64,000 bases of DNA from a phage. The first letter of the stretch is position 1. Each line of letters begins with the position of its first letter. The notes below the pieces were generated by a model. That model did not search any database, was not told where the DNA came from, and worked only from the letters and a program-made list of their open reading frames with translations. A program made the translations under genes and the position numbers. Of this stretch, positions 3,426 through 42,568 are shown one piece after another. The stretch lies in sequence record PZ386947.1. One strand, 5' to 3'.

Positions 3426-4441
3426 TGTGTTGCCTCTACATATAGCTGATTCGCATATTGAATAAGTGCTTCACGGTCAGAATCAGTGATGTCTGGAATT
3501 GCATTAATGTATTCTTCCATCAACGTCTGAAGAGATTGAACTTCAACTTCTTCACTTTCATCTGACTCGACAGAGTTATCAATTTTTGACACAACTCGTA
3601 ATGAATGCACAACTTTTTCTAGTTCAGATTCGAACTTCGTCAGATTTTTGTCTACCTCAGTTACTATAACACGTACTGATAGATTTGTAAAATCTTTATA
3701 GTCAATTTTTCCTTTAAATGGATAATGAATTCTACGATGCCAGGTAGTATTGTTTGGAATAAATTCCATTCGTTCTGTTTCTGTATCAAACATCCAGAAC
3801 CCACGAGGGTCATTCTCGTCACCTGCAGTTAGTGTCCATGGTGTCCCAATATATCTGACGTTAGCAGCCTCAGAGATAGTATGGAAGTGACCAGACCACA
3901 CCTCTTTATAAGTCTTAAGGAAATCAGGTTCAAGACCGTGAGATTTCATTCCTTTATAAAAATAAAATCCATTCAGCTCCCAGTGACCAACACAAAAAGA
4001 AGCAGATGAAGTTTTGATGTGTTCAAGAATTTCACCAGTATTTTCTTCACACATCCAAGGAATTAAATCAATCAAACATCCGTCAAAATCTACTGTAGTA
4101 GGCTTATCATACACTTTAACATTAGGATATTTAGCCAAAAGCTCAGTAGAGGCATTTGGAGTTAAAGTATTTTTAAAGTGCATATCATGGTTTCCTACAA
4201 CAGTATGTAGGGTAATACCAGCATCATCAAGCATTTGAACTATTTCACGAGCGAACTCCATAGTTTTATGTGTGATTGCTTTTCGCACATCAAAAATATC
4301 ACCATATTGAATCCATACAGTAATTCCATTTTTCTTAGAATATTCTATCGCTTGCTTAATTCCATCAATTTGAATACCGCGAATCCACTCATCATCGGCT
4401 TTAACGCCTAAATGCCAATCACCTAAATTTAAAATTTTCAT
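3422..4441 (-). CDS. 47: recombination endonuclease subunit gp47 (Mre11/SbcD-like phosphoesterase)
   Basis: 339 aa; calcineurin-like phosphoesterase motifs (LGDWHLG, GDIFD, GNHD, GHWE, GHFH); length equals T4 gp47. Confidence 0.93.
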   Translation of the reverse strand: MKILNLGDWHLGVKADDEWIRGIQIDGIKQAIEYSKKNGITVWIQYGDIFDVRKAITHKTMEFAREIVQMLDDAGITLHTVVGNHDMHFKNTLTPNASTELLAKYPNVKVYDKPTTVDFDGCLIDLIPWMCEENTGEILEHIKTSSASFCVGHWELNGFYFYKGMKSHGLEPDFLKTYKEVWSGHFHTISEAANVRYIGTPWTLTAGDENDPRGFWMFDTETERMEFIPNNTTWHRRIHYPFKGKIDYKDFTNLSVRVIVTEVDKNLTKFESELEKVVHSLRVVSKIDNSVESDESEEVEVQSLQTLMEEYINAIPDITDSDREALIQYANQLYVEATQ

Positions 4442-4601
4442 ATATCAAGAACCGTCATTGAAATGCAAAATAAAATTATTGAAATAAACCCATCTGGTGT
4501 GCTAAAGAACCCAATCCAACATGCTCTAGTGAATAGATAAAATGCAAGAAAAAGTATCACATATCCAAGAAATATCATTATATCAAACTCCGTATAAAGC
4601 T

Positions 4602-4619: not shown

Positions 4620-5820
4620 ATTTTGTAATAATGTCAAACTGTTCTTTAAAGCAGAAGCTTGAATCTTGATGCTGATACAAAAATTCATATGCTTTTTCTC
4701 GCTCACGGTCATAAAGAGCTCGGTCAGATGACAGTTCTTTAATACGTTCAAATGTTGATTCCATATCATTTTCATCAAACCAAATGATACCGCTATCATG
4801 CGAGGTCAAAGGAGTATTATCAACACGGAATTTTAAATTTTCGCCAGTAGATTTCCAAAATACCGGAATTGTTCCACATGCACCAAGCTCGAGATGAGTA
4901 TATTCTAAAGAACGTTGTAGATATTTTTTATCCAACTTACTCAACTGATAACCAAATCCGGATTTACTCATACGTTCAAGCATTTCGCTATTTACATAAC
5001 GGTCAAGAATTTGCGTTGGCAAATTAGGAGCAATTTTAATTTGGTCTACTTGATGAAGACGATAATACTCGTATGGAATTCCTTTTTCTTTAATAGGAAT
5101 GAACGCTGGAGAACGTTCCAGACCTTCCATAATAGTACTTAGTCCTGCAGGTTTAAGATGTTTTTCGTGAAAATCAAACATCTGATAAAAACCTTTCCAT
5201 GTAGTCGTACGACCAATCCAACGGTTGATATTCATGTTAATTTCAGAAACATCTTTCCAGTAGGTTGACCGAACCTTCGCAATATCCATAGGAGGCTGAA
5301 AGTTATATACTGTCGGTGCTTCTTCAATATCATCAAACAGAGAAACTGTTTCTGGATACCATTCTTTCATCAGAACTTTATTAAAATCGCCATTATCAGA
5401 ATGACTAAAAATAACATCAGCTCGACGAACAGTTTCTTCTAATCCCAAATTTCGGCGCAAAGAAAGAGAAGAATGGTCATGTTGATAAACTACAACACGA
5501 ACAGAAGGTTTAATGTTATCAATAATTTTTTTATAGTTATTAATAGTGTCTTCTTCAACCGAAGTAGCAGGAACTGAATTGATAATTAGAATATCACAAT
5601 CATTTACCAGCTTAAGTGTTTTATCATATTCTTTTGCCAATAAAACCGGAATTGAAAATGATTTATAATCATGCGCGCAATTACGAGTAAATGATTTATC
5701 TTTAGCATAAACCAAAGTTACTTCATGACCATTTTTAATAAACCAATCACGTTGCTCAAGAGAAAATTTAGTTACACCACAACCTTCAAGACCTCGAGCC
5801 ATAAAAATACATACTTTCAT
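4618..5820 (-). CDS. a-gt: DNA alpha-glucosyltransferase
   Basis: 400 aa; near-identical in recalled sequence to T4 AGT (MRxCIFMARGLEGCGVTKFSLEQRDWFIKNGHEVTLVYAKDKSF...). Confidence 0.93.
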   Translation of the reverse strand: MKVCIFMARGLEGCGVTKFSLEQRDWFIKNGHEVTLVYAKDKSFTRNCAHDYKSFSIPVLLAKEYDKTLKLVNDCDILIINSVPATSVEEDTINNYKKIIDNIKPSVRVVVYQHDHSSLSLRRNLGLEETVRRADVIFSHSDNGDFNKVLMKEWYPETVSLFDDIEEAPTVYNFQPPMDIAKVRSTYWKDVSEINMNINRWIGRTTTWKGFYQMFDFHEKHLKPAGLSTIMEGLERSPAFIPIKEKGIPYEYYRLHQVDQIKIAPNLPTQILDRYVNSEMLERMSKSGFGYQLSKLDKKYLQRSLEYTHLELGACGTIPVFWKSTGENLKFRVDNTPLTSHDSGIIWFDENDMESTFERIKELSSDRALYDREREKAYEFLYQHQDSSFCFKEQFDIITK

Positions 5821-12657: not shown

Positions 12658-13143
12658 TCAAGTATTGTAAAACATTTGATGCAATCGCTTATATTGCCGA
12701 ATCTTTTGGTCAGAAAAAGAAATTTGGGTTTCAAGCCATTCAATATATTCTGCCGCAGCTTGCATCAAATTTCCTTCATAGCCATCGTTATTTTCTTGTG
12801 CAGCTAATTTAGCTAATGCGTATGAAATACGTTCACCCTGAAAATCGGCTTTAGGCTTCTGAACAACTTGATTAGTTCGCTCTACAACTTCTTCAATTTC
12901 GCCATTTTCGACTGATTCAGTATTCCACAAACACCAATACGTAATTGGCTTATCGTAGATGTTAATAATCTTTCCATCAGAAAGTTCAATTTCAATAATT
13001 CCAGTATCAGGTTCTATATCATCTTCACATTCTTTTGCAAGTTCACGAACCTTAAAGACAGTACCTGCACTAAGTTCCGGCCAGTAATTACACAGCCCTG
13101 TATCAGCACGATTAATTCTAAACCACTTATCTACTGTAATCAT
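12658..13143 (-). CDS. hypothetical protein, possibly Pin (protease inhibitor)
   Basis: 161 aa from internal ATG (T4 Pin is 161 aa) and position after gene 49; sequence identity not confirmed. Confidence 0.4.
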   Translation of the reverse strand: MITVDKWFRINRADTGLCNYWPELSAGTVFKVRELAKECEDDIEPDTGIIEIELSDGKIINIYDKPITYWCLWNTESVENGEIEEVVERTNQVVQKPKADFQGERISYALAKLAAQENNDGYEGNLMQAAAEYIEWLETQISFSDQKIRQYKRLHQMFYNT

Positions 13144-13266
13144 GTCCCATCTCCATATCAATTAAGTCATTTATCGTTGGTTCATTATATACTGTTTCTT
13201 CATCAGTGTAAACCGGTTCTTCCGGCTCTGGCTCTACAGTTTCCCATCTAGCCGCCCACCAAGGTT

Positions 13267-13587
13267 TTATAGCGTAATCCATTCTCGTACTGTCTGAGTT
13301 ACTACACGTTCATGGGGCTCGACTAGTTCAACAGTCGGAACTGCATAATACCAGTCAGAATGATAAGAACCTGACCGAGATTCATTTACCGCTACATGTA
13401 CATTATGTTTTGGACTAAAGTAAACAAACTGACGATATTGGCATTTACCATCTTGCACCCAGTCTTCTATTTCGATAGGTTTAAGATAGTCGGAAAAATC
13501 GAAATCATAGTTTTCCGAAAATGCATCATGGTCTTCAATGATTTCGCTCAGAACTGCATCAACATCTAATTTATTTTCAATAGTCAT
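13267..13587 (-). CDS. hypothetical protein (106 aa)
   Basis: ORF track. Confidence 0.5.
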   Translation of the reverse strand: MTIENKLDVDAVLSEIIEDHDAFSENYDFDFSDYLKPIEIEDWVQDGKCQYRQFVYFSPKHNVHVAVNESRSGSYHSDWYYAVPTVELVEPHERVVTQTVREWITL

Positions 13588-13597
13588 TTTTCACCAA

Positions 13598-13807
13598 TTA
13601 ATTTCGCAATTTATTAAGTTCTTCATAATCAATCCAGGATTCTAATCCTGATGGCAAATCACATTCAATTTCCCAAAGAAGTTCTTCAATTTTATGAAGA
13701 CGATCTAGTTCTTCAGCAGGAATAGTAACCATTGACGGAGCTCTTGCTACATTAATATCGTAAATCATATTTACACCAGTTTGACCATACAATCGCCGTA
13801 TTTCCAC
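13598..13807 (-). CDS. hypothetical protein (69 aa)
   Basis: ORF track. Confidence 0.45.
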   Translation of the reverse strand: MEIRRLYGQTGVNMIYDINVARAPSMVTIPAEELDRLHKIEELLWEIECDLPSGLESWIDYEELNKLRN

Positions 13808-13986
13808 TTAGAAATAGACTTTTCACCATTAGAATAATAAACTTCAAGTTTAGCACGATTATTTTTAATTTGAATAACCTTTGCTGTCATCAAAGTTCCA
13901 TACCCATAATAAACTGCAACTTCATCACCTACATATACAGCGCTTCCGCGGTAATCGTGAATATAGTCAGTTCCTTCGAGCATCAT
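13771..13986 (-). CDS. hypothetical protein (71 aa)
   Basis: ORF track. Confidence 0.45.
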   Translation of the reverse strand: MMLEGTDYIHDYRGSAVYVGDEVAVYYGYGTLMTAKVIQIKNNRAKLEVYYSNGEKSISKWKYGDCMVKLV

Positions 13987-14246
13987 TTAAAATATTCTCG
14001 CAGTTGGTCAAATCCACCAATATGACTTCCATCAGGAGCAAATACCTGAGGCATTGTCAAGCCGATTTGAGTATCACGACCTAGTTTAGTCAGAAGCTCA
14101 GCGATTTTCTCATCATCAAAAACACCTTTTTCCGGCATAATGTTGATAAATTCAAACGGCTGTTTCTTCACGGTCAAAAGACGTTTTGCATTATCGCAAT
14201 ACACACATTTATGAATGTTGCTATCATAACCATATACTTTAAACAT
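13983..14246 (-). CDS. nrdC: thioredoxin/glutaredoxin
   Basis: 87 aa; CVYC active site, MFKVYGYDSNIHKCVYCDNAKRLL...; length matches T4 NrdC. Confidence 0.88.
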   Translation of the reverse strand: MFKVYGYDSNIHKCVYCDNAKRLLTVKKQPFEFINIMPEKGVFDDEKIAELLTKLGRDTQIGLTMPQVFAPDGSHIGGFDQLREYFK

Positions 14247-14247
14247 A

Positions 14248-14490
14248 TTATTCCTTAATTCCTAGTACTTGTTTAAAAGTCTCGTCGTAATCAAGACTTT
14301 GGCCCGTTTGTTCTTTATGTTTGTATATAATATCACTTACTTCTGATAGCATATTTTTATATGAACGAGTTAAAGCAGATTTAAGCACGCTGTATCTATC
14401 AGGAAATTTACCATGTTCATTATAATAAGCTATTGCTAATTCATGGACTGCCTTTTCAGCAGCCTCCATATATTCTTTACGCTTGGTCAT
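14248..14490 (-). CDS. hypothetical protein (80 aa)
   Basis: ORF track. Confidence 0.5.
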
Positions 14491-14492
14491 TT

Positions 14493-14882
14493 TTAATCCA
14501 AAATATTATTAGGCATTGGTTGAACACTCACAAGTTCTTTAAAGAACTCAGTAGAGTCAGGCAATTTAACCATTTCCGGAGCATGCTTACTGAATTTATG
14601 TTTACATTGACGGCATTTATATTCAAGCTCTGGTTTACGCCAGTTAATCAATTGAACTTGTTCAGTACCGCATTCAGGGCAATTAGGAACGTTTTTAGAA
14701 GCTCTTTCACGTCGTTCAACCATAGCCATAATAGCATCCCATGCTGGAGGTTTAAAATCTAAATCGTCGCAGCCGTGAATCTTTCCACGCATTTCCATAT
14801 CATCTTCCTCACCAGCCATAATAATTTTAATTAGACTAGAATTACTTGAAGCTGCAATATCTTCTAATAAACGCTTTTTCAT
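14493..14882 (-). CDS. zinc-ribbon protein
   Basis: 129 aa; CPECG...CRQCK four-cysteine motif. Confidence 0.5.
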
Positions 14883-15805
14883 TTCAGTACCTCAATAGCA
14901 TCACGTAAACCATTTGCTTTGGCGGTTAAAGCCTTAAGAACTTTAGTATGCTCTTCAATTTGTTTTTCAACTTCAATCAAACGAGCATTGAGATATTCGC
15001 GTTCTTCTTTCATAGTATCATTTCCATGATTAGATTTTGGTGTAGGTTTAAATTCACTAGGGTCCTTTAATTTAATAACAAATTTAGTTTCAAACAGTGA
15101 AAGACCATAATTCGTATTATCATCAAAGGATTTGACTACATCCATATCAGATAATAACACGCGCAAATTATAAGCCAAAGAACTAATAGTTTCATTGTGT
15201 TTATTAGCTTCGCGTGGTTTCATATACGGAAGATTTTTATATATCTCATGCGGAGCGCAAACGATAATTGACAATTCAAATTGTCCATTCTGGGACGATG
15301 GAATGAATTTAGCCGTAACCCAGTCTTTTACATTCACATTAATAGTACGGTTATCACCATGACAAAACAGTCTACGAGAATGCTTAAAAAGCATATTCAC
15401 GTTATTATTGAATTCGTGTGAAAATTCACTAGCAAATTTTTCTTTACTATCTTTAGAAAACCATTCTTCTAAATAAGTTCTTTTCACATCGTTAATAATA
15501 TTAAATGTAACAACACTAGCATTTGATACATTAGTCTCAATGTAGCTTGGATACATAAATTTTTTAACATTATTAACAGCTATCACAGAAGATAGTAATC
15601 GGGAACGTTTGAACCACTCGAGCAAAGAACCAAGAGAATGTGAATACGCATTTTGTGTATCTTTACAAATATGGTTTTCCCATCCAATATAGTCTAAAAA
15701 ATCACGAAGAATATTATTGATTACTGCTCTGTGTCCTATCTGATAATCACGATGTTTAGTAATAAGACTGTCAAAATAATCAATATAATGTTTACGAGTT
15801 TTCAT
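14879..15805 (-). CDS. hypothetical protein with C-terminal coiled coil
   Basis: 308 aa; heptad-like C-terminus [33 protein letters not shown]. Confidence 0.55.
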   Translation of the reverse strand: MKTRKHYIDYFDSLITKHRDYQIGHRAVINNILRDFLDYIGWENHICKDTQNAYSHSLGSLLEWFKRSRLLSSVIAVNNVKKFMYPSYIETNVSNASVVTFNIINDVKRTYLEEWFSKDSKEKFASEFSHEFNNNVNMLFKHSRRLFCHGDNRTINVNVKDWVTAKFIPSSQNGQFELSIIVCAPHEIYKNLPYMKPREANKHNETISSLAYNLRVLLSDMDVVKSFDDNTNYGLSLFETKFVIKLKDPSEFKPTPKSNHGNDTMKEEREYLNARLIEVEKQIEEHTKVLKALTAKANGLRDAIEVLK

Positions 15806-31575: not shown

Positions 31576-31992
31576 TTAAATGTAAATATTTTTGCCGTAA
31601 TACTTATACCAGTGTGGCTTCATTAAAATTTTTTCATCGAGTCGTTGTTGACTCAACTTAATAGCTGATTTGCATGGATTATAATCATTTTTCCATTCTA
31701 CTGGAATATCGCTGATGTCAGGAACTTCAGTATCTTTTATACTGAACCCGCGTTTTAAGCATTCCGTTATAATGTCCGATTGACGCTTTCGCAAAAATTC
31801 TAACTTATCGTAAAAGAAAGTAACATGACCAGAACCTAAAATAAATTTAGAAGATATTTTAAAATCTTTAACGCGCTTACCGTTTGCCACATGCTTACGA
31901 ACTATACCAAAAACACGCGGCAATTCACGGTATTCTGCGATTAAATGTTGATCAGCAAGTTCAGATACTAAAGTCAAATTAATACGAGTCAT
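31576..31992 (-). CDS. denV: endonuclease V (pyrimidine dimer DNA glycosylase)
   Basis: 138 aa; [29 protein letters not shown]... matches recalled T4 endo V with substitutions. Confidence 0.9.
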
Positions 31993-32015
31993 TTTATCCC
32001 TCCAAGTAACTGTGA

Positions 32016-32049
32016 ATATACTATCACAATTCTAGGAGAAAGTAAACAA
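32016..32049 (-). promoter_or_regulatory. candidate early promoter upstream of denV
   Basis: minus strand GTTTACtttctcctagaattgtgaTAGTAT; spacer about 19 nt. Confidence 0.4.
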
Positions 32050-32051
32050 CT

Positions 32052-32582
<531 letters not shown>

Positions 32583-36053: not shown

Positions 36054-36086
36054 GTATAGTACCATGGAAGGACAAGGATGTAAACC
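36054..36086 (-). promoter_or_regulatory. T4-type early promoter (GTTTAC, 18 nt spacer, TGgTACTAT)
   Basis: minus strand GTTTACatccttgtccttccatggTACTATacaactatcaac. Confidence 0.6.
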
Positions 36087-36218
36087 GTTTTGTGAAAAAA
36101 TTTTTAAAAAGTTTTGGGGAATTCTAGGGCAGGAAGGGGAAATCAAAGGATAGGATAATATATTATAAAGGGTAGAAACTAAATGATGTCTAGAGAGGCC
36201 TGGAAAGGCCTAGATACC

Positions 36219-36245
36219 AAAAAGCCCCAACCTTTCGGTCGGGGC
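36219..36245 (-). terminator. intrinsic terminator (9 bp stem, UUUC-type loop, U5), copy 1
   Basis: minus strand GCCCCGACCgaaaGGTTGGGGCttttt; directly after ORF 36254-36727; identical copy at 36774-36800. Confidence 0.65.
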
Positions 36246-36253
36246 TAAGAATG

Positions 36254-36727
36254 TTATTTGATTTGTTTAGCAGACCAAATGCGATCTTTAATAATTTTTT
36301 GGATGTCTTCAACATACTCAAGAGAGTGAGCATGTGGATTATCTTTGAAACTATAAGCACGAGCTAGTTTTTGGCCTTCAGTTTTGATTACTAAAAGCTC
36401 TTTAAGGATAGCTTCATATTTGGAGATAATTCCTTTAACAATATTTTTTTCTTGTGCAGCTTTAGGATCTGCTTTAGGAGCAGGTTTACCCGAAGCCTTT
36501 GCAAAAGCAGCGCCAGTAGCAACTAAACTTTTCCAGGCCATACTAACTGCATTTCCCGTAAATCCTTCCGCTTTCATGTCGCGTGCGAACTGGAATCGCG
36601 ATTCATCAGAAGCATCTTTATAAGAATATTTACCCGCTGCAATGGCTGCTTTTGCGACAGCTTGAATTTCGGTGCTAGATGCTTCATTTAACACCGCTTC
36701 ATTTAAAAATTGAGTATATGATTTCAT
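36254..36727 (-). CDS. basic Ala/Lys-rich protein with internal-protein-like N-terminus (candidate head internal protein)
   Basis: 157 aa; N-terminus MKSYTQFLNEA resembles T4 IP capsid-targeting sequence MKTYQEFIAEA; TATAAATA late promoter 36 nt upstream. Confidence 0.55.
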   Translation of the reverse strand: MKSYTQFLNEAVLNEASSTEIQAVAKAAIAAGKYSYKDASDESRFQFARDMKAEGFTGNAVSMAWKSLVATGAAFAKASGKPAPKADPKAAQEKNIVKGIISKYEAILKELLVIKTEGQKLARAYSFKDNPHAHSLEYVEDIQKIIKDRIWSAKQIK

Positions 36728-36763
36728 CTTATTTCCTGTTTTAATTCGTGGTTTTAATATACT

Positions 36764-36771
36764 TATTTATA
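36764..36771 (-). promoter_or_regulatory. late promoter TATAAATA
   Basis: minus strand TATAAATA upstream of ORF 36254-36727. Confidence 0.45.
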
Positions 36772-36773
36772 CT

Positions 36774-36800
36774 AAAAAGCCCCAACCTTTCGGTCGGGGC
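36774..36800 (-). terminator. intrinsic terminator, copy 2 (identical to 36219-36245)
   Basis: same 27 nt hairpin plus U-run; closes the unit between ORF 37111-37461 and the IP-like gene. Confidence 0.6.
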
Positions 36801-37110
36801 TAAGCCTTGCGGCAACCTTGTCGGGGTTCCACCTGCTAAGGCAAGTGTTTGTACGAAACGCCGGGATTCGAACCCGGTTATTAAGCAGTTGACGCTACTC
36901 AATATTTTTAAAAGGCCATATCTCGACCATATCCGAACGTTCCGTCAAAAACGCTACTCGGCTTACGGCAAAGATATTTCCTCGAATCGATAATTCGGTG
37001 CGCCGTTTCTGCTGTGATGTAAGAGGGCATCAATAAACGCAAAGATTATTAACGCAATTCCTTACTCAGGGAACATCAGTCCGACGACTTACCGGTAGCG
37101 ACCCGGTTTC

Positions 37111-37461
37111 TTAATATTCTTTTAAAGCATCAATCTGTTTACGGCGTTCACGCCATAAATCAATTGCTTCATACGCGGATTCAACATTTCGAATTGGACG
37201 GCATTTATATAAAGATTTGTGATTTTGATATTGCGTAGATAACGGAATTTTATCTAAAAGGTCTTTACGTTCAAAGTATTCGTAACCATCTAAGCCAAAT
37301 GAACGATTTTTGAGAAATTGCCAATGACCAAATTCGTTTTGAATATAAATATAATCCGCATGTTGATAAAGTAAATTAATTTCACGAAATGAGATATGTT
37401 TTTCATATTCATTGAAGTAAAATGTTAAATCATGAACTACTAAATAAACATTACCTTTCAT
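37111..37461 (-). CDS. hypothetical protein (116 aa)
   Basis: ORF track; immediately downstream of tRNA-Arg. Confidence 0.5.
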   Translation of the reverse strand: MKGNVYLVVHDLTFYFNEYEKHISFREINLLYQHADYIYIQNEFGHWQFLKNRSFGLDGYEYFERKDLLDKIPLSTQYQNHKSLYKCRPIRNVESAYEAIDLWRERRKQIDALKEY

Positions 37462-37479
37462 ATTTTCCTCACTTATAAT

Positions 37480-37555
37480 TGGTCGAGGCAGTAGGGATCG
37501 AACCTACGACCTAGGACTTAGAAGGTCCTTGCTCTTCCTTCTGAGCTATGCCCCG
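37480..37555 (-). tRNA. tRNA-Arg (anticodon UCU)
   Basis: hand-folded cloverleaf: 7 bp acceptor stem, T-arm GTAGG-TTCGATC-CCTAC, anticodon loop CTTCTAA, encoded CCA. Confidence 0.85.
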
Positions 37556-37659
37556 TAATTGGGGTGACCGATGGGAGTCGAACCACCCGAGTCGCAATGA
37601 CAATGGATTTACAGTCCACACCGCTACCTCTACGGGATAACTCCCCTTAATTCTTAATT
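37556..37659 (-). ncRNA. tRNA-like element of uncertain identity (degenerate tRNA or stable small RNA)
   Basis: fills the gap between tRNA-Ile and tRNA-Arg; has GGTTCGACTCC T-loop-like motif, acceptor-like 3' end ending CCCCA, and a hairpin with GUA in a 7 nt loop, but no canonical cloverleaf. Confidence 0.3.
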
Positions 37660-37734
37660 TGGTGGCCCTGGGTGGAATTGAACCACCATCTGGCGATTAT
37701 GAGTCGCTTGCTTGAACCTTCCAGCTACAGGGCC
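37660..37734 (-). tRNA. tRNA-Ile (anticodon CAU, presumably modified to read AUA)
   Basis: matches recalled T4 tRNA-Ile; T-arm GGTGG-TTCAATT-CCACC; anticodon loop CTCATAA; encoded CCA. Confidence 0.85.
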
Positions 37735-37735
37735 T

Positions 37736-37811
37736 TGGTGCTGATTGACGGAATCGAACCGCCGACCTTCTCATTACAAGTGAGTTGCTCTACCTACTGA
37801 GCTAAATCAGC
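37736..37811 (-). tRNA. tRNA-Thr (anticodon UGU)
   Basis: GCTGATTTAGCTCAGTAGG...ACTTGTAATGA...GGTTCGATTCC...CAGCACCA; 1 nt spacer from tRNA-Ile. Confidence 0.85.
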
Positions 37812-37816
37812 AAAAC

Positions 37817-37906
37817 TGGCGGAGGCGATAGGATTTGAACCTATGAGTCGCCGGAGCGACTGCCGGTTTTCAAGACCGGTGCATTAAACCACTCTGCCAC
37901 GCCTCC
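37817..37906 (-). tRNA. tRNA-Ser (anticodon UGA), long variable arm
   Basis: matches recalled T4 tRNA-Ser (GGAGGCGTGGCAGAGTGG...CTTGAAAA...GGTTCAAATCC...CCTCCGCCA). Confidence 0.9.
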
Positions 37907-37912
37907 AAATAT

Positions 37913-38563
37913 TTATATATTGTTAATTTGATTTAGAATTCTTTTTGCTTGAGTATGACTTACGCCAATATGCTTAGCATATTTAGACAATTCGCCACGT
38001 TTAGAAAAATCATATAATTTAGAAATTTCTATTCTTCTTTTTCTTTCATCCGCAGAAACTTTTGCTTCGTTTGCTTTTGCTATTTTACGTTTAGCTTCTT
38101 GAGAATGAGTTTTACCAGCAAAGCCATTCTTCATTAATCCATTTGAAGACCATCCTTTTAATTTTCCGTTAGAATGTGCCTTTTTAACACCCAATGAAAT
38201 TAATTCGCGTTGCTGATCTGTCATAGGATAATTATTTATATGATCCCATCCACCTTCACCTCCAAGTTTTAAATTATACACATCTGGTCTATTTAAAAAC
38301 TCTTCTGTGACAATATTTTTCTCGGCTTCAAGCATAGATTCTTTATCGTCAAAATACTCTAATATTTCTTTAGAAAAATTTTCTATACCATATTTATCTT
38401 GGGCTCTTTTTAATAATTTACCAGAACCCATATATCCATCATCTAAATTTTCGGTAGAATGCACACCAATATAAATTTTATTATTAATTTTATTTGTTAT
38501 TTTATAAAGATAAAAATGCATATCAGTCCCTAATAAAGAACTGAGCGTCTCACGACGAGTCAT
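37913..38563 (-). CDS. GIY-YIG homing endonuclease (Seg-like) inside the tRNA cluster
   Basis: 216 aa; GIY-YIG core YLYKITNKINNKIYIGVHS...GYMGSGKLL; C-terminal HTH-like region; wedged between tRNA-Gly and tRNA-Ser. Confidence 0.8.
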   Translation of the reverse strand: MTRRETLSSLLGTDMHFYLYKITNKINNKIYIGVHSTENLDDGYMGSGKLLKRAQDKYGIENFSKEILEYFDDKESMLEAEKNIVTEEFLNRPDVYNLKLGGEGGWDHINNYPMTDQQRELISLGVKKAHSNGKLKGWSSNGLMKNGFAGKTHSQEAKRKIAKANEAKVSADERKRRIEISKLYDFSKRGELSKYAKHIGVSHTQAKRILNQINNI

Positions 38564-38567
38564 AAAT

Positions 38568-38641
<74 letters not shown>

Positions 38642-38646
38642 AAATT

Positions 38647-38733
38647 TGGTGCGAGAAGTGGGACTCGAACCCACAAGGAAATCATTCCGCAGCATTTTAA
38701 GTGCTGTGCCTTTACCAATTTGACCATTCTCGC
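38647..38733 (-). tRNA. tRNA-Leu (anticodon UAA), long variable arm
   Basis: matches recalled T4 tRNA-Leu (GCGAGAATGGTCAAATTGG...CTTAAAA...GGTTCGAGTCC...TCGCACCA). Confidence 0.9.
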
Positions 38734-38739
38734 GCTATA

Positions 38740-39372
38740 TTATTTATTACGTGAAAAAGACTGTTCTATCAATTCTGGACACTTTCGTTCTATCCATTTT
38801 CTAGCTTTTTGTGGGCTTATACCTATTATTTTAGCAGCTTTACTAACCCATCCAAATTTAGAATAATCGATTTTAACTAATTCTTCGTAAATTTCATCAG
38901 TTAAAATCTTTTCATTAATATTTACCAGTAAATGATATAATTTATTATCATTAGCAATTTTAATGAATCTTTTATAGTTTCCGCCTTTACTTAAACCTAA
39001 TGAAGTAATTGCAGATGATATAGTAGCCGAATTTAATAGTGCGTTTAAAATTTCTTCATCACTAACATTATAACGCTTTTTATTATTTTTAATATTTTTA
39101 CCAGCAAAAGTATCAGTTTGCGAATGGCAGTTTGGACATAATAATCTTAAATTTGATTTAAGATGATTTTTGTTATTTCCATCAATATGGTCTAATTGCA
39201 GAACAATATGCTTATTTTGCCATTTTGAAATTTTACAAATTGCACACTCATATGGAAAAATATTTTCTTTTATTATTTTGTCTTTCAGCTTTCCTGTACT
39301 AAAATTTGGATGTTTTCCTTCAAAAATTTCAGCTAATTTAGTATCCATAATATGATTCCCAATTATTAACAA
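38740..39372 (-). CDS. HNH homing endonuclease abutting tRNA-Leu
   Basis: 210 aa; CAIC...LQLDHIDGNNKNH...LRLLCPNCH HNH/zinc-finger core; C-terminal HTH-like segment; stop 7 nt from the tRNA-Leu 5' end. Confidence 0.75.
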   Translation of the reverse strand: MLIIGNHIMDTKLAEIFEGKHPNFSTGKLKDKIIKENIFPYECAICKISKWQNKHIVLQLDHIDGNNKNHLKSNLRLLCPNCHSQTDTFAGKNIKNNKKRYNVSDEEILNALLNSATISSAITSLGLSKGGNYKRFIKIANDNKLYHLLVNINEKILTDEIYEELVKIDYSKFGWVSKAAKIIGISPQKARKWIERKCPELIEQSFSRNK

Positions 39373-40255: not shown

Positions 40256-40675
40256 TCAGCCTTCATCAACAATAGTATGAGTGTGGGCATTTACAATTTG
40301 CCACCAATCAAAGCGATTAGAACCACACATCGGTTTGTTTTCATTTTCTTTGATAATATCACGAAGTTCATCTTCGGTAGCGGCTTTCGCGATTAAATCA
40401 GCATATCCACCGCGAGGATAATAATTATCACCTGCAAAAAGTAAAAAGTTCGGTTTAATATTATTGAACTCTTCAAGAGTAATAACTTTTCCTGTCGGTT
40501 GAACAATCTCTACATATTTATATCCTAATTTTTGAGCAGCATCTACTGCTTCAAGCAAAGTATCATGAGCCCATCCAATTTGACAACCTGGCTTTTCAGA
40601 TGGATTAGCCTGATAATCCGCGTACACTTTATACATTCTATTCACCTTTAGAAATTTTATCCATAACGATAGCAA
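40256..40675 (-). CDS. hypothetical protein (139 aa or shorter)
   Basis: ORF track; start may be the internal ATG MYKVYADY. Confidence 0.5.
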   Translation of the reverse strand: MLSLWIKFLKVNRMYKVYADYQANPSEKPGCQIGWAHDTLLEAVDAAQKLGYKYVEIVQPTGKVITLEEFNNIKPNFLLFAGDNYYPRGGYADLIAKAATEDELRDIIKENENKPMCGSNRFDWWQIVNAHTHTIVDEG

Positions 40676-40823: not shown

Positions 40824-40849
40824 TTTATTCTCCTCAGTAGCTGATAGGG

Positions 40850-40882
40850 TAATAGTATCACTACTAAAACCCAATGTAAACA
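40850..40882 (-). promoter_or_regulatory. early promoter, copy 1 of a 4-copy repeat module
   Basis: minus strand GTTTACattgggttttagtagtgaTACTATtaccctatcag. Confidence 0.55.
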
Positions 40883-40884
40883 AT

Positions 40885-41109
40885 TTATTCAACGCCAGCG
40901 GCTTTCAAAAGTTTCTTAAGATTGGCAACACCTTGAGCAGAAAATGTGACCTTGCCACCTTTTTCACTGATAGAACCAACCAATTTAGCAAGTTTATCAT
41001 TAGGAATTTTTTTAAAATCAGCCAATGTTCCATCAAAGGTTTTTGAAACAAAAGGCAGTTCGTCTTCGCGTCTTTTAGCTTCTACAATAAATTCTTGATA
41101 TGTTTTCAT
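40885..41109 (-). CDS. candidate head internal protein (CTS-bearing)
   Basis: begins MKTYQEFIVEA, matching the T4 internal-protein capsid-targeting sequence; GGAAA SD; own promoter copy upstream. Confidence 0.6.
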   Translation of the reverse strand: MKTYQEFIVEAKRREDELPFVSKTFDGTLADFKKIPNDKLAKLVGSISEKGGKVTFSAQGVANLKKLLKAAGVE

Positions 41110-41143
41110 TTTAGTTTCCATTTGAGTGTTTGTTTTGATAGGG

Positions 41144-41176
41144 TAATAGTATCACTACTAAAACCCAATGTAAACA
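41144..41176 (-). promoter_or_regulatory. early promoter, copy 2 of repeat module
   Basis: minus strand GTTTACattgggttttagtagtgaTACTATtaccctatcaaaac. Confidence 0.6.
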
Positions 41177-41193
41177 ACTTTGTGAAAAATTTA

Positions 41194-41481
41194 TTACAAA
41201 AGATTTTTAGCAATAATCTTGAGATGTGCCGCAGAAATGTGTTTAGCTTTAAACAACGCAGTTTCTTCAGCAGGAGAGATAACGATTGTAGCACCATCCT
41301 TTTTAGCAGACCACCCATCGCCTAGGTAAACAGTACCTTTGATTTCTTCGCCATCAACCAGACTAATCATTGGTTTACCTTCTCGTCCTTTATTTGCTTT
41401 AATAACTTCAGAAGTAAGAGTAGCTTCGGTAATAGTAGAAACCGGGGTAGTTGTAGAAGTAAATTCTTTGAAAGTTTTCAT
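41194..41481 (-). CDS. candidate head internal protein (CTS-like N-terminus)
   Basis: 95 aa; begins MKTFKEFTSTTTPVSTITE; GGAAA SD; own promoter copy upstream. Confidence 0.55.
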   Translation of the reverse strand: MKTFKEFTSTTTPVSTITEATLTSEVIKANKGREGKPMISLVDGEEIKGTVYLGDGWSAKKDGATIVISPAEETALFKAKHISAAHLKIIAKNLL

Positions 41482-41509
41482 TTTATTTTCCTAATTAATT
41501 TTGATAGGG

Positions 41510-41542
41510 TAATAGTATCACAACTAAAACCCTATGTAAACA
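41510..41542 (-). promoter_or_regulatory. early promoter, copy 3 of repeat module
   Basis: minus strand GTTTACatagggttttagttgtgaTACTATtaccctatcaa. Confidence 0.6.
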
Positions 41543-41553
41543 ACTTTGTGAAA

Positions 41554-41811
41554 TTATTTTAAATCTTCTAATCGTTTCTTCATCTTAGAACCGTTCTTAG
41601 CGATTTCGCCTGCATCAGAGCATAATGCTAAAAGCGCTTTAACTTTAGTTTGGTCTCCTTTAAAAGATGAAGGATCAACAGCAGCAGCAAGTTCTTTAAT
41701 ACGAGAGAAAAGACGCTCAGCTTCAGCTAAAGCCATTCCAAGCTTTACTTCCATACCGCGGGAAGATTCAGTAATAGTAGTTTTTGTAGCAAACTCTTTG
41801 AAAGTTTTCAT
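41554..41811 (-). CDS. candidate head internal protein (CTS-like N-terminus)
   Basis: 85 aa; begins MKTFKEFATKTTITE; own promoter copy upstream. Confidence 0.55.
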   Translation of the reverse strand: MKTFKEFATKTTITESSRGMEVKLGMALAEAERLFSRIKELAAAVDPSSFKGDQTKVKALLALCSDAGEIAKNGSKMKKRLEDLK

Positions 41812-41839
41812 TTTATTTTCCTAATTAATTTTGATGAGG

Positions 41840-41872
41840 TAATAGTATCACTACCTCATCAGTATGTAAACA
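41840..41872 (-). promoter_or_regulatory. early promoter, copy 4 of repeat module
   Basis: minus strand GTTTACatactgatgaggtagtgaTACTATtacctcatcaa. Confidence 0.6.
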
Positions 41873-41883
41873 ACTTTGTGAAA

Positions 41884-42568
<685 letters not shown>

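Follow-up and report, generated by a model that had tools for sequence, protein, structure and literature searches.

A terminator-bracketed gene downstream of the tRNA operon in T-even phages: a probable internal protein gene at a third locus

Published work on the internal proteins (IPs, or Ip proteins) of T-even phages, including PMC12373910, describes two Ip loci. In the phage sequence record PZ386947.1, from which a stretch of 64,000 nucleotides (hereafter the window) was analysed, an open reading frame (ORF) at positions 36254-36727 lies elsewhere, in the e.8-rnaC interval, and is bracketed by two hairpins of the same sequence. This locus raises the question of whether the ORF encodes a further internal protein, and of how a lone gene came to stand between two copies of one terminator. 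It appears that the ORF is probably a real, late-expressed gene for an unnamed internal protein that is packaged and injected, at a third IP locus (e.8-rnaC). What appears to be new here is the recognition of a conserved family as a probable IP at this third locus; the flanking repeat had previously been noted in GenBank. The features on which the argument is built are as follows.

36254-36727 (stop codon included), minus strand: coding sequence of 157 aa, candidate internal (packaged) protein, family phrog_2280
36683-36727, minus strand: leader codons 1-15, MKSYTQFLNE/AVLNE/A, of which residues 1-10 form a propeptide resembling a capsid targeting sequence (CTS)
36732-36737, minus strand: Shine-Dalgarno sequence AGGAAA, with a GGA-to-ATG distance of 6 nt, read from the sequence
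36764-36771, minus strand: late promoter octamer TATAAATA, T4-type, 36 nt 5' of the ATG
36769-36804, minus strand: upstream copy of a 36-nt direct repeat, with stem-loop 36801-36778 and U-run 36777-36773
36214-36249, minus strand: downstream copy of the same 36-nt repeat, serving as terminator of the ORF, with stem-loop 36246-36223 and U-run 36222-36218

The initial annotation had described an ORF beginning MKSYTQFLNEA that encodes a basic, Ala/Lys-rich protein resembling an internal protein. The 157-aa frame is indeed present, with the correction that it lies on the minus strand, and its product is basic and rich in both residues (pI 9.5, 17 kDa, Ala 17%, Lys 13%), resembling T4 IPII and IPIII in pI and composition. 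The leader argues further for the assignment. T-even internal proteins share a common leader of the type MK(T/S)(Y/F)x(E/Q)F(I/L)xE, ending in a gp21-type (I/L)xE, and the T4 leaders used for comparison are MKTYQEFIAE/A in IPII and IPIII and MKTFKEF...ITE/A in IPI. In IPIII, the ten N-terminal residues suffice for packaging, residues 4 and 7 of the CTS serving mainly in targeting and residues 8 and 10 in processing (review of Black's work, PMC9026906). The leader of ORF 36254-36727 retains these mapped positions (Y4, F7, L8, and E10, followed by Ala). A gp21-type (I/L)-x-E site is thus present at L8-N9-E10/A and is repeated at L13-N14-E15/A; the two candidate gp21 sites (LNE/A) stem from a 15-nt tandem duplication (FLNEA-VLNEA, 36683-36712, minus strand). 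This duplication was found in Tequatrovirus-type members of the family and is missing from the Mosigvirus and Klebsiella phage members.

The leader is also among the best-conserved parts of the family, even where identity falls to 24%. Among 12 aligned members that cover this range, M1 and F7 belong to the 8 columns that are invariant overall, L8 is almost invariant, position 4 is Y or F throughout, and an (L/I/V)xE site follows in every member. The leader codons vary synonymously between genera (TAT/TAC, TTA/TTG), which indicates that the constraint acts on the peptide. In the six-frame translation of the window, the motif MK[ST]?[YF].[EQ]F has 4 matches, one in each of the three ip genes at the ipI locus and one in ORF 36254-36727, so that the motif otherwise occurs only in ip genes. 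A relaxed form of the CTS motif finds all three T4 IPs, with one spurious match in the 12 kb searched.

With regard to transcription, the initial annotation had placed a late promoter upstream of the ORF and identical 27-nt hairpins at 36219-36245 and 36774-36800. The promoter is borne out (TATAAATA at 36771-36764, minus strand), and so is the identity of the hairpins; their extent is not, each being part of a longer direct repeat of 36 nt with 1 mismatch, of which 31 nt are exact and in which unpaired bases beyond the stem agree as well. Each copy forms, on the minus strand, a 10-bp stem (7 G-C pairs) with a GAAA loop and a U5 tail (-20.3 kcal/mol, z ~ -4.3), as expected of an intrinsic terminator, while the plus-strand fold is weaker and has no U-run. 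The two copies are the top two terminator-like sites within 31-45 kb. The downstream copy starts 4 nt past the stop codon of the ORF. The upstream hairpin lies ~50 nt 3' of the end of the rnaC homologue, as aligned with annotated T4, and is therefore taken as the terminator of the tRNA-rnaD-rnaC operon; TATAAATA follows directly after its U-run, partly overlapping the end of the repeat. A search of Rfam near the element returned tRNAs only.

A repeat spread throughout the genome would have spoken against the bracketing of this one gene. Only 2 copies with at most 3 mismatches occur in the window, none of 100 shuffles gave any match, and megablast with the 36-mer placed it at 2 places in the entire genome of Shigella phage CM8 (MK962750, genus Tequatrovirus), with which the 801 bases around the ORF are 100% identical. 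The same 801 bases are 97-98% identical with several hundred T4-like phages.

The gene is indeed widespread. Using tblastn, the protein was found as an intact ORF in 512 phage records, which fall into Tequatrovirus (at least 95% identity), a Mosigvirus group (~72-75%), and Klebsiella phages, in which the match covers the N-terminal half only. A word-indexed protein search returned 13 proteins, every one from T-even-like phages, and an exhaustive profile search of 1.8 billion representatives likewise returned 13 proteins and added only a handful of more distant members. The sole match in PHROGs was phrog_2280, a family without an assigned function, whose members come from Tequatrovirus, Mosigvirus, Jiaodavirus, Muldoonvirus, and one Yersinia phage. 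In Tequatrovirus, Mosigvirus JK36, and Jiaodavirus KP1, the gene has the same place, in that it follows the tRNA cluster directly and the e.x/nudE block comes after it, and a distant member in Cronobacter phage vB_Cdu_VP8 (OQ361773, Muldoonvirus) likewise lies between the tRNAs and nudE.

The arrangement around the gene is conserved as well. RB51, JK36, KP1, and VP8 all have a hairpin, a late-promoter octamer immediately behind it, the gene, and a second hairpin. The octamer behind the terminator is TATAAATA in RB51 and a 7/8 match in JK36; the terminator-promoter junction of Klebsiella phage KP1 is GGGGCTTTTTAGTATAAATA, equal to that of the window, and that of VP8 is CCCTTTTGTGGTATAAATA. As to whether the repeat recurs at the boundaries in relatives, it does so in RB51 and JK36, and it does not in KP1 and VP8, whose downstream hairpins are unrelated to the upstream ones. 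Bracketing by terminators is therefore general, and near-identical copies are a feature of Tequatrovirus and Mosigvirus. In JK36, both hairpins (4925-4955 and 5470-5500 of the segment compared) share the arm CCCCTTCC together with an internal mismatch, while the Tequatrovirus arm is CCCCGACC. The JK36 copies thus resemble each other more than their orthologues, which suggests that copies are kept alike within a genome, possibly by concerted evolution or gene conversion. At the VP8 locus (3786-4510 of the segment compared), two tandem CTS-like ORFs stand behind one terminator and TATAAATA, and a second terminator closes the unit. One of 72 aa (MKSFTEFLTE/S), unrelated to the family, lies upstream of the 169-aa homologue (MKSFSSFLNEG), so that the locus can hold more than one CTS-type gene.

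The second part of the question, how the gene came to stand between the two copies, can be approached through genomes in which the site is empty. The initial annotation had called the arrangement cassette-like. In T4, a single hairpin lies between e.8 and rnaC and the ORF is missing; the window equals T4 plus exactly 555 bp, that is, the ORF, the late promoter, and one copy of the hairpin. The left flank of the single T4 hairpin matches that of the downstream copy in the window, its right flank matches that of the upstream copy, and the junction therefore falls inside the repeat. When the T4 empty junction was used as a query, its 301 bases were contiguous in 9 of the 25 full-length rows sampled (T4, T6, F2, ACG-C40, and others), and the occupied genomes among the matches had a span of 856-860 bases, in every case 555-559 bp longer than the empty 301 bp. 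An empty site with one hairpin copy is likewise found in PST and T2. In RB51 (NC_012635), the site is occupied by a homologue, RB32ORF132c / RB51ORF140, whose protein is 99.4% identical; the GenBank entry had already described it as 'flanked by 34 bp imperfect direct repeat', and its downstream copy differs at 3 positions with the fold retained. Occupied and empty sites are thus both widespread, which bears out the cassette-like description as a presence/absence polymorphism at one site, without shuffling between loci. Since the gene is syntenic in four genera, the T4-type site most likely arose by deletion between the repeats.

A mechanism may be proposed on the established gene structure, repeats, polymorphism, synteny, and leader conservation, from which we infer late transcription, packaging, cleavage, injection, and the function of the protein. 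Briefly, transcripts of the tRNA-rnaD-rnaC region would end at the upstream hairpin, and TATAAATA would then drive a monocistronic mRNA of ~0.5 kb that is stopped by the identical downstream hairpin. The leader MKSYTQFLNE would act as the capsid targeting sequence and bring the protein to the scaffolding core of the prohead, where the prohead protease gp21 would cleave after LNE, at E10 and perhaps at E15 too (10 or 15 residues removed). The predicted product, a basic all-helical protein of ~15.5-16 kDa, would stay with the DNA and be injected into the next host, where it would probably disarm host defence at DNA entry, by analogy with Ip1, Ip2, and Ip3. At the DNA level, homologous recombination between the 36-nt copies would delete the ORF, the promoter, and one copy, leaving a site of the T4/T2/T6/PST type, and the reverse reaction could reinsert an excised circle, as in the mini-circle model for promoter-early stem-loop (PeSL) cassettes.

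Several explanations compete with parts of this scheme. The one that concerns the DNA alone holds that the two hairpins are independent strong terminators that have converged, and that the gene is an ordinary transcription unit rather than a recombination cassette. It could draw on the unrelated hairpins that flank the KP1 gene, on the 3 differences in the downstream copy of RB51, and on the fact that any monocistronic gene behind an operon would have a terminator on both sides. Convergence would have to account, however, for 36 nt with 1 mismatch that extend beyond the stem and have no counterpart in shuffles, for a T4 empty-site junction that falls exactly within the repeat, for the near-constant occupied span (301 bp plus 555-559 bp), and for JK36 copies that share CCCCTTCC against the Tequatrovirus CCCCGACC and so are more alike within the genome than between orthologues; this explanation is very improbable. 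It has also to be considered whether the product enters the virion at all. The gene could encode a late cytoplasmic protein that is not packaged, for example one tied to the tRNA/rnaC region or to late gene expression, and the leader could resemble a CTS only because T-even genes have in common an AT-rich start of the coding region, which recombines or aids translation. Unlike the classical ip genes, this gene is conserved between genera and its place is always beside the tRNA cluster; nothing in the protein is similar to named IPs beyond the leader; the leaders are alike at the DNA level too; and nearly all annotations read 'hypothetical protein'. On the other hand, the retained residues are exactly those mapped for targeting and cleavage, they persist at 24-37% overall identity with synonymous codon changes, the motif is otherwise restricted to ip genes, the VP8 locus holds a second CTS-like ORF, and the classical IPs are themselves mutually unrelated outside the leader (PMC12373910). 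A cytoplasmic product is therefore judged unlikely.

If the protein is packaged, the main alternative to an anti-defence role is one in head assembly or DNA packing. Rather than inhibiting host defence, it would then act chiefly in assembling the head or condensing the DNA, as a scaffold-core or DNA-binding protein such as IPIII has been proposed to be. Such a role would suit a helical, basic protein that is rich in Lys and Ala and has a linker of Pro, Lys, and Ala; its conservation across genera is easier to reconcile with a structural partner than with a rapidly evolving target in the host, and IPIII mutants assemble heads more slowly (PMC9026906). Yet the gene is dispensable, being absent from T4, T2, T6, PST, and about one third of the sampled full-length rows, and all three T4 IPs have GmrSD targets (PMC12373910); a mainly structural role is judged unlikely. 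The AlphaFold (AF2) model of the protein, with a mean pLDDT of 73, begins with a leader that is disordered, continues with a small domain of helices at 18-75, and ends, after a Pro/Ala/Lys linker, in a long helical hairpin at 88-154. The protein had zero matches in Pfam, NCBIfam, and PDB sequences, and a Foldseek search of the model against PDB and BFVD returned matches to its own family only.

A number of points weigh against reading the gene as one for an internal protein, or against parts of the scheme. With a model of medium confidence and no informative matches, the anti-defence role is drawn by analogy only. The locus lies outside the two loci of all described ip genes (denV-e and tRNA.4-57B), and in both conservation and synteny the gene far surpasses the hypervariable ip genes, which makes a different, housekeeping-type role possible. 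Identity to the T4 CTS amounts to 6 of 11 residues, with S3, T5, Q6, and N9 differing. The TATAAATA octamer is not rare, 16 being found in the window against ~10 expected, so that its weight rests on its conserved position in relatives. Homologues are annotated as 'hypothetical' nearly throughout; a single UniRef entry labels the homologue of Klebsiella phage KPKp 'Internal head protein', the remaining entries being 'hypothetical'. The searchable literature yielded neither virion proteomics or other experimental data on the protein nor a previous description of the ORF as an IP, although Repoila et al. 1994 and Comeau et al. 2007 may mention the ORF. The direction of the event, loss in T4 rather than gain elsewhere, is suggested by synteny. 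These points taken into account, a packaged internal protein is still the probable reading, and it is plausible, by analogy, that the protein is a new anti-defence protein. The wider proposal, that a third IP locus lies downstream of the tRNA/rnaC operon, that an injected CTS-bearing family encoded there counters defence outside Ip1-3, and that the gene is gained and lost by terminator recombination as a late-promoter variant of the PeSL, is offered tentatively, its chances being put a little short of even.

For the classical denV-e locus, the initial annotation had noted a gap of only 59 bp between denV and e, without ip genes, and an IP complement rearranged relative to T4. Both statements hold. 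The features concerned are the following.

31993-32051, minus strand: e-denV gap, the empty ipII/ipIII locus, with a single promoter/palindrome element
40885-41109, minus strand: 'Ip8' (MKTYQEFIVEA), CTS-bearing gene of the ipI locus (40885-41811)
41194-41481, minus strand: IpI, CTS-bearing gene of the ipI locus
41554-41811, minus strand: 'Ip5', CTS-bearing gene of the ipI locus

The gap lies between denV (31576-31992) and e (32052-32546) and contains no ORF. It is a chimera. Its first part, which carries the promoter TTTACT-N17-TAGTAT as well as the palindrome GAATTGTGA...TCACA, matches the T4 e-ipIII spacer, and its last part matches the end of the T4 ipII-denV spacer; ipIII and ipII are missing, and the joint lies inside the repeated promoter element. 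A joint at such a position is said to be predicted by the Repoila/PeSL model, and the idea of an ip cassette reportedly dates from 1994. A contiguous denV-e junction of the window type was found in ~245 phage records and is thus a common configuration. At the ipI locus, the window has three ip genes versus one in T4. Each of them is preceded by a repeat of 45-123 nt that carries TTTACA-N17-TACTAT (40842-41899; spacings 294, 366, and 330 nt), and these are the PeSL-type repeats of the literature. The IP complement of the window therefore comprises the three ipI-locus genes and the candidate ORF 36254-36727, with denV-e contributing nothing. The candidate is not a relocated ipII or ipIII, which is ruled out since the similarity stops at the leader. 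A further candidate for kinship, IpIV of Yersinia phage PST, has the same 157-aa length and a CTS, but it is unrelated and lies at the denV-e locus, and the site discussed here is empty in PST.

The remainder of the region has a T4-like gene order, all on the minus strand: denV, e, nudE, e.2-e.8, the ORF, rnaC/rnaD, the tRNA cluster, the ipI locus, 57B, 57A, 1, and 3. The neighbours of the ORF are as follows.

~36852-36990, minus strand: rnaC homologue, from the T4 alignment (97% identity over 36852-37114)
~36997-37114, minus strand: rnaD homologue, from the same alignment
36056-36084, minus strand: PeSL-type early promoter TTTACA-N17-TACTAT, which drives e.8 (consensus from PMC4122927)

The rnaC and rnaD homologues are the final genes of the tRNA operon, which stops at the upstream hairpin. 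The e.8 early promoter shares homology, in its upstream part, with the promoter repeats found at the ipI locus (repeat family D4, with a related piece at 36078-36110). The tRNA region itself (37111-39372) is unlike that of T4, with six tRNAs (Arg, Met, Thr, Ser, Gly, and Leu) versus eight; a SegB-like GIY-YIG gene at 37913-38563 and an HNH endonuclease gene at 38740-39372 are part of the difference. In addition, an extra ORF of 116 aa (37111-37461, 'trna.2 protein' by annotation) lies between rnaD and tRNA-Arg, and 37573-37644 gives a sub-threshold tRNA-like match. A metagenome protein of 94 aa was also found, whose N-terminus resembles the protein of window ORF 40256-40675 and whose last 32 residues are those of the ORF 36254-36727 protein, which implies a natural deletion of the entire tRNA cluster. 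The window and the CM8 record MK962750 are collinear except for a 974-bp tandem duplication in CM8 that is present as a single copy in the window (41224-42097). In CM8, the duplication spans ipI, ip5, and the 5' part of 57B (13095-15217 of the CM8 segment compared) and reflects either a genuine amplification of this segment of the ip locus or an error of assembly. A few further differences from CM8 occur at 40842-40844 and 41123-41160.

Compared with the known T-even internal proteins (Mullaney and Black 1996), the candidate has a leader of the same type and is likewise small, basic, and rich in Ala and Lys; its gene can be dispensed with and varies in presence between close relatives, regulatory repeats lie to either side of it, and, as among the known proteins, similarity ends at the leader. 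Known from its sequence alone, it agrees with them in leader, cleavage site, size, charge, and dispensability. It differs in lying at e.8-rnaC and at neither denV-e nor tRNA.4-57B; the two-locus definition, however, is a historical description of where IPs were sought and not a functional requirement. It differs as well in being conserved and syntenic in at least four genera, whereas the IPs are hypervariable, and in having a late promoter and terminators, whereas the ipI-locus genes of the window have repeated early-type promoters. The CTS-bearing gene occurs in more than 500 sequenced T-even genomes, many of them therapeutic candidates, and is missing from the laboratory phages T4, T2, and T6, and for this reason the phrog_2280 family may have gone unnoticed.

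It was reported that Ip1, Ip2, and Ip3 each specifically inhibit a distinct GmrSD type IV restriction enzyme and are delivered with the DNA (PMC12373910). The present protein has no likeness to IPIII beyond the leader and no fold match in PDB or BFVD outside its own family; a common mode, in which it is injected with the DNA and acts before phage gene expression, is possible by analogy only. As a possible new anti-defence factor delivered by injection, the ORF is an obvious and cheap choice for study, and differences in host range between T4 and wild Tequatroviruses might in part be explained by it. RB51ORF140/RB32ORF132c is the same gene; the RB51 record gives neither a function nor a link to internal proteins, and the repeat is imperfect there, while 31 nt are exact in the window.

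The arrangement resembles the PeSL cassettes described in T4-type phages by Arbiol et al. 2010 (PMC2839356) and by Comeau et al. 2014 (PMC4122927). These papers document insertions and deletions at regulatory repeats in such phages, and mini-circles formed between the repeats; excision and circle formation of a PeSL-flanked ORF have been shown experimentally in RB49 and phi1 (PMC2839356) and were inferred for PST versus T4 (PMC4122927). As in such cassettes, a lone accessory ORF stands between two copies of a short stem-loop regulatory element, a close relative, T4, has a single copy and lacks the ORF, the indel junction falling inside the repeat, and excision or integration through recombination between the copies would explain the pattern. 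The differences are that the window repeat is the 36-nt terminator alone, with the late promoter TATAAATA on one side only, and that an early promoter (TTTACA-N17-TACTAT) is found ~140 nt beyond the downstream copy. Being terminator-only, the repeat falls outside the composite early promoter/stem-loop definition of a PeSL. The site also offers a clean natural case of gene gain and loss at a repeated terminator, and it would extend the PeSL idea to terminator-only repeats.

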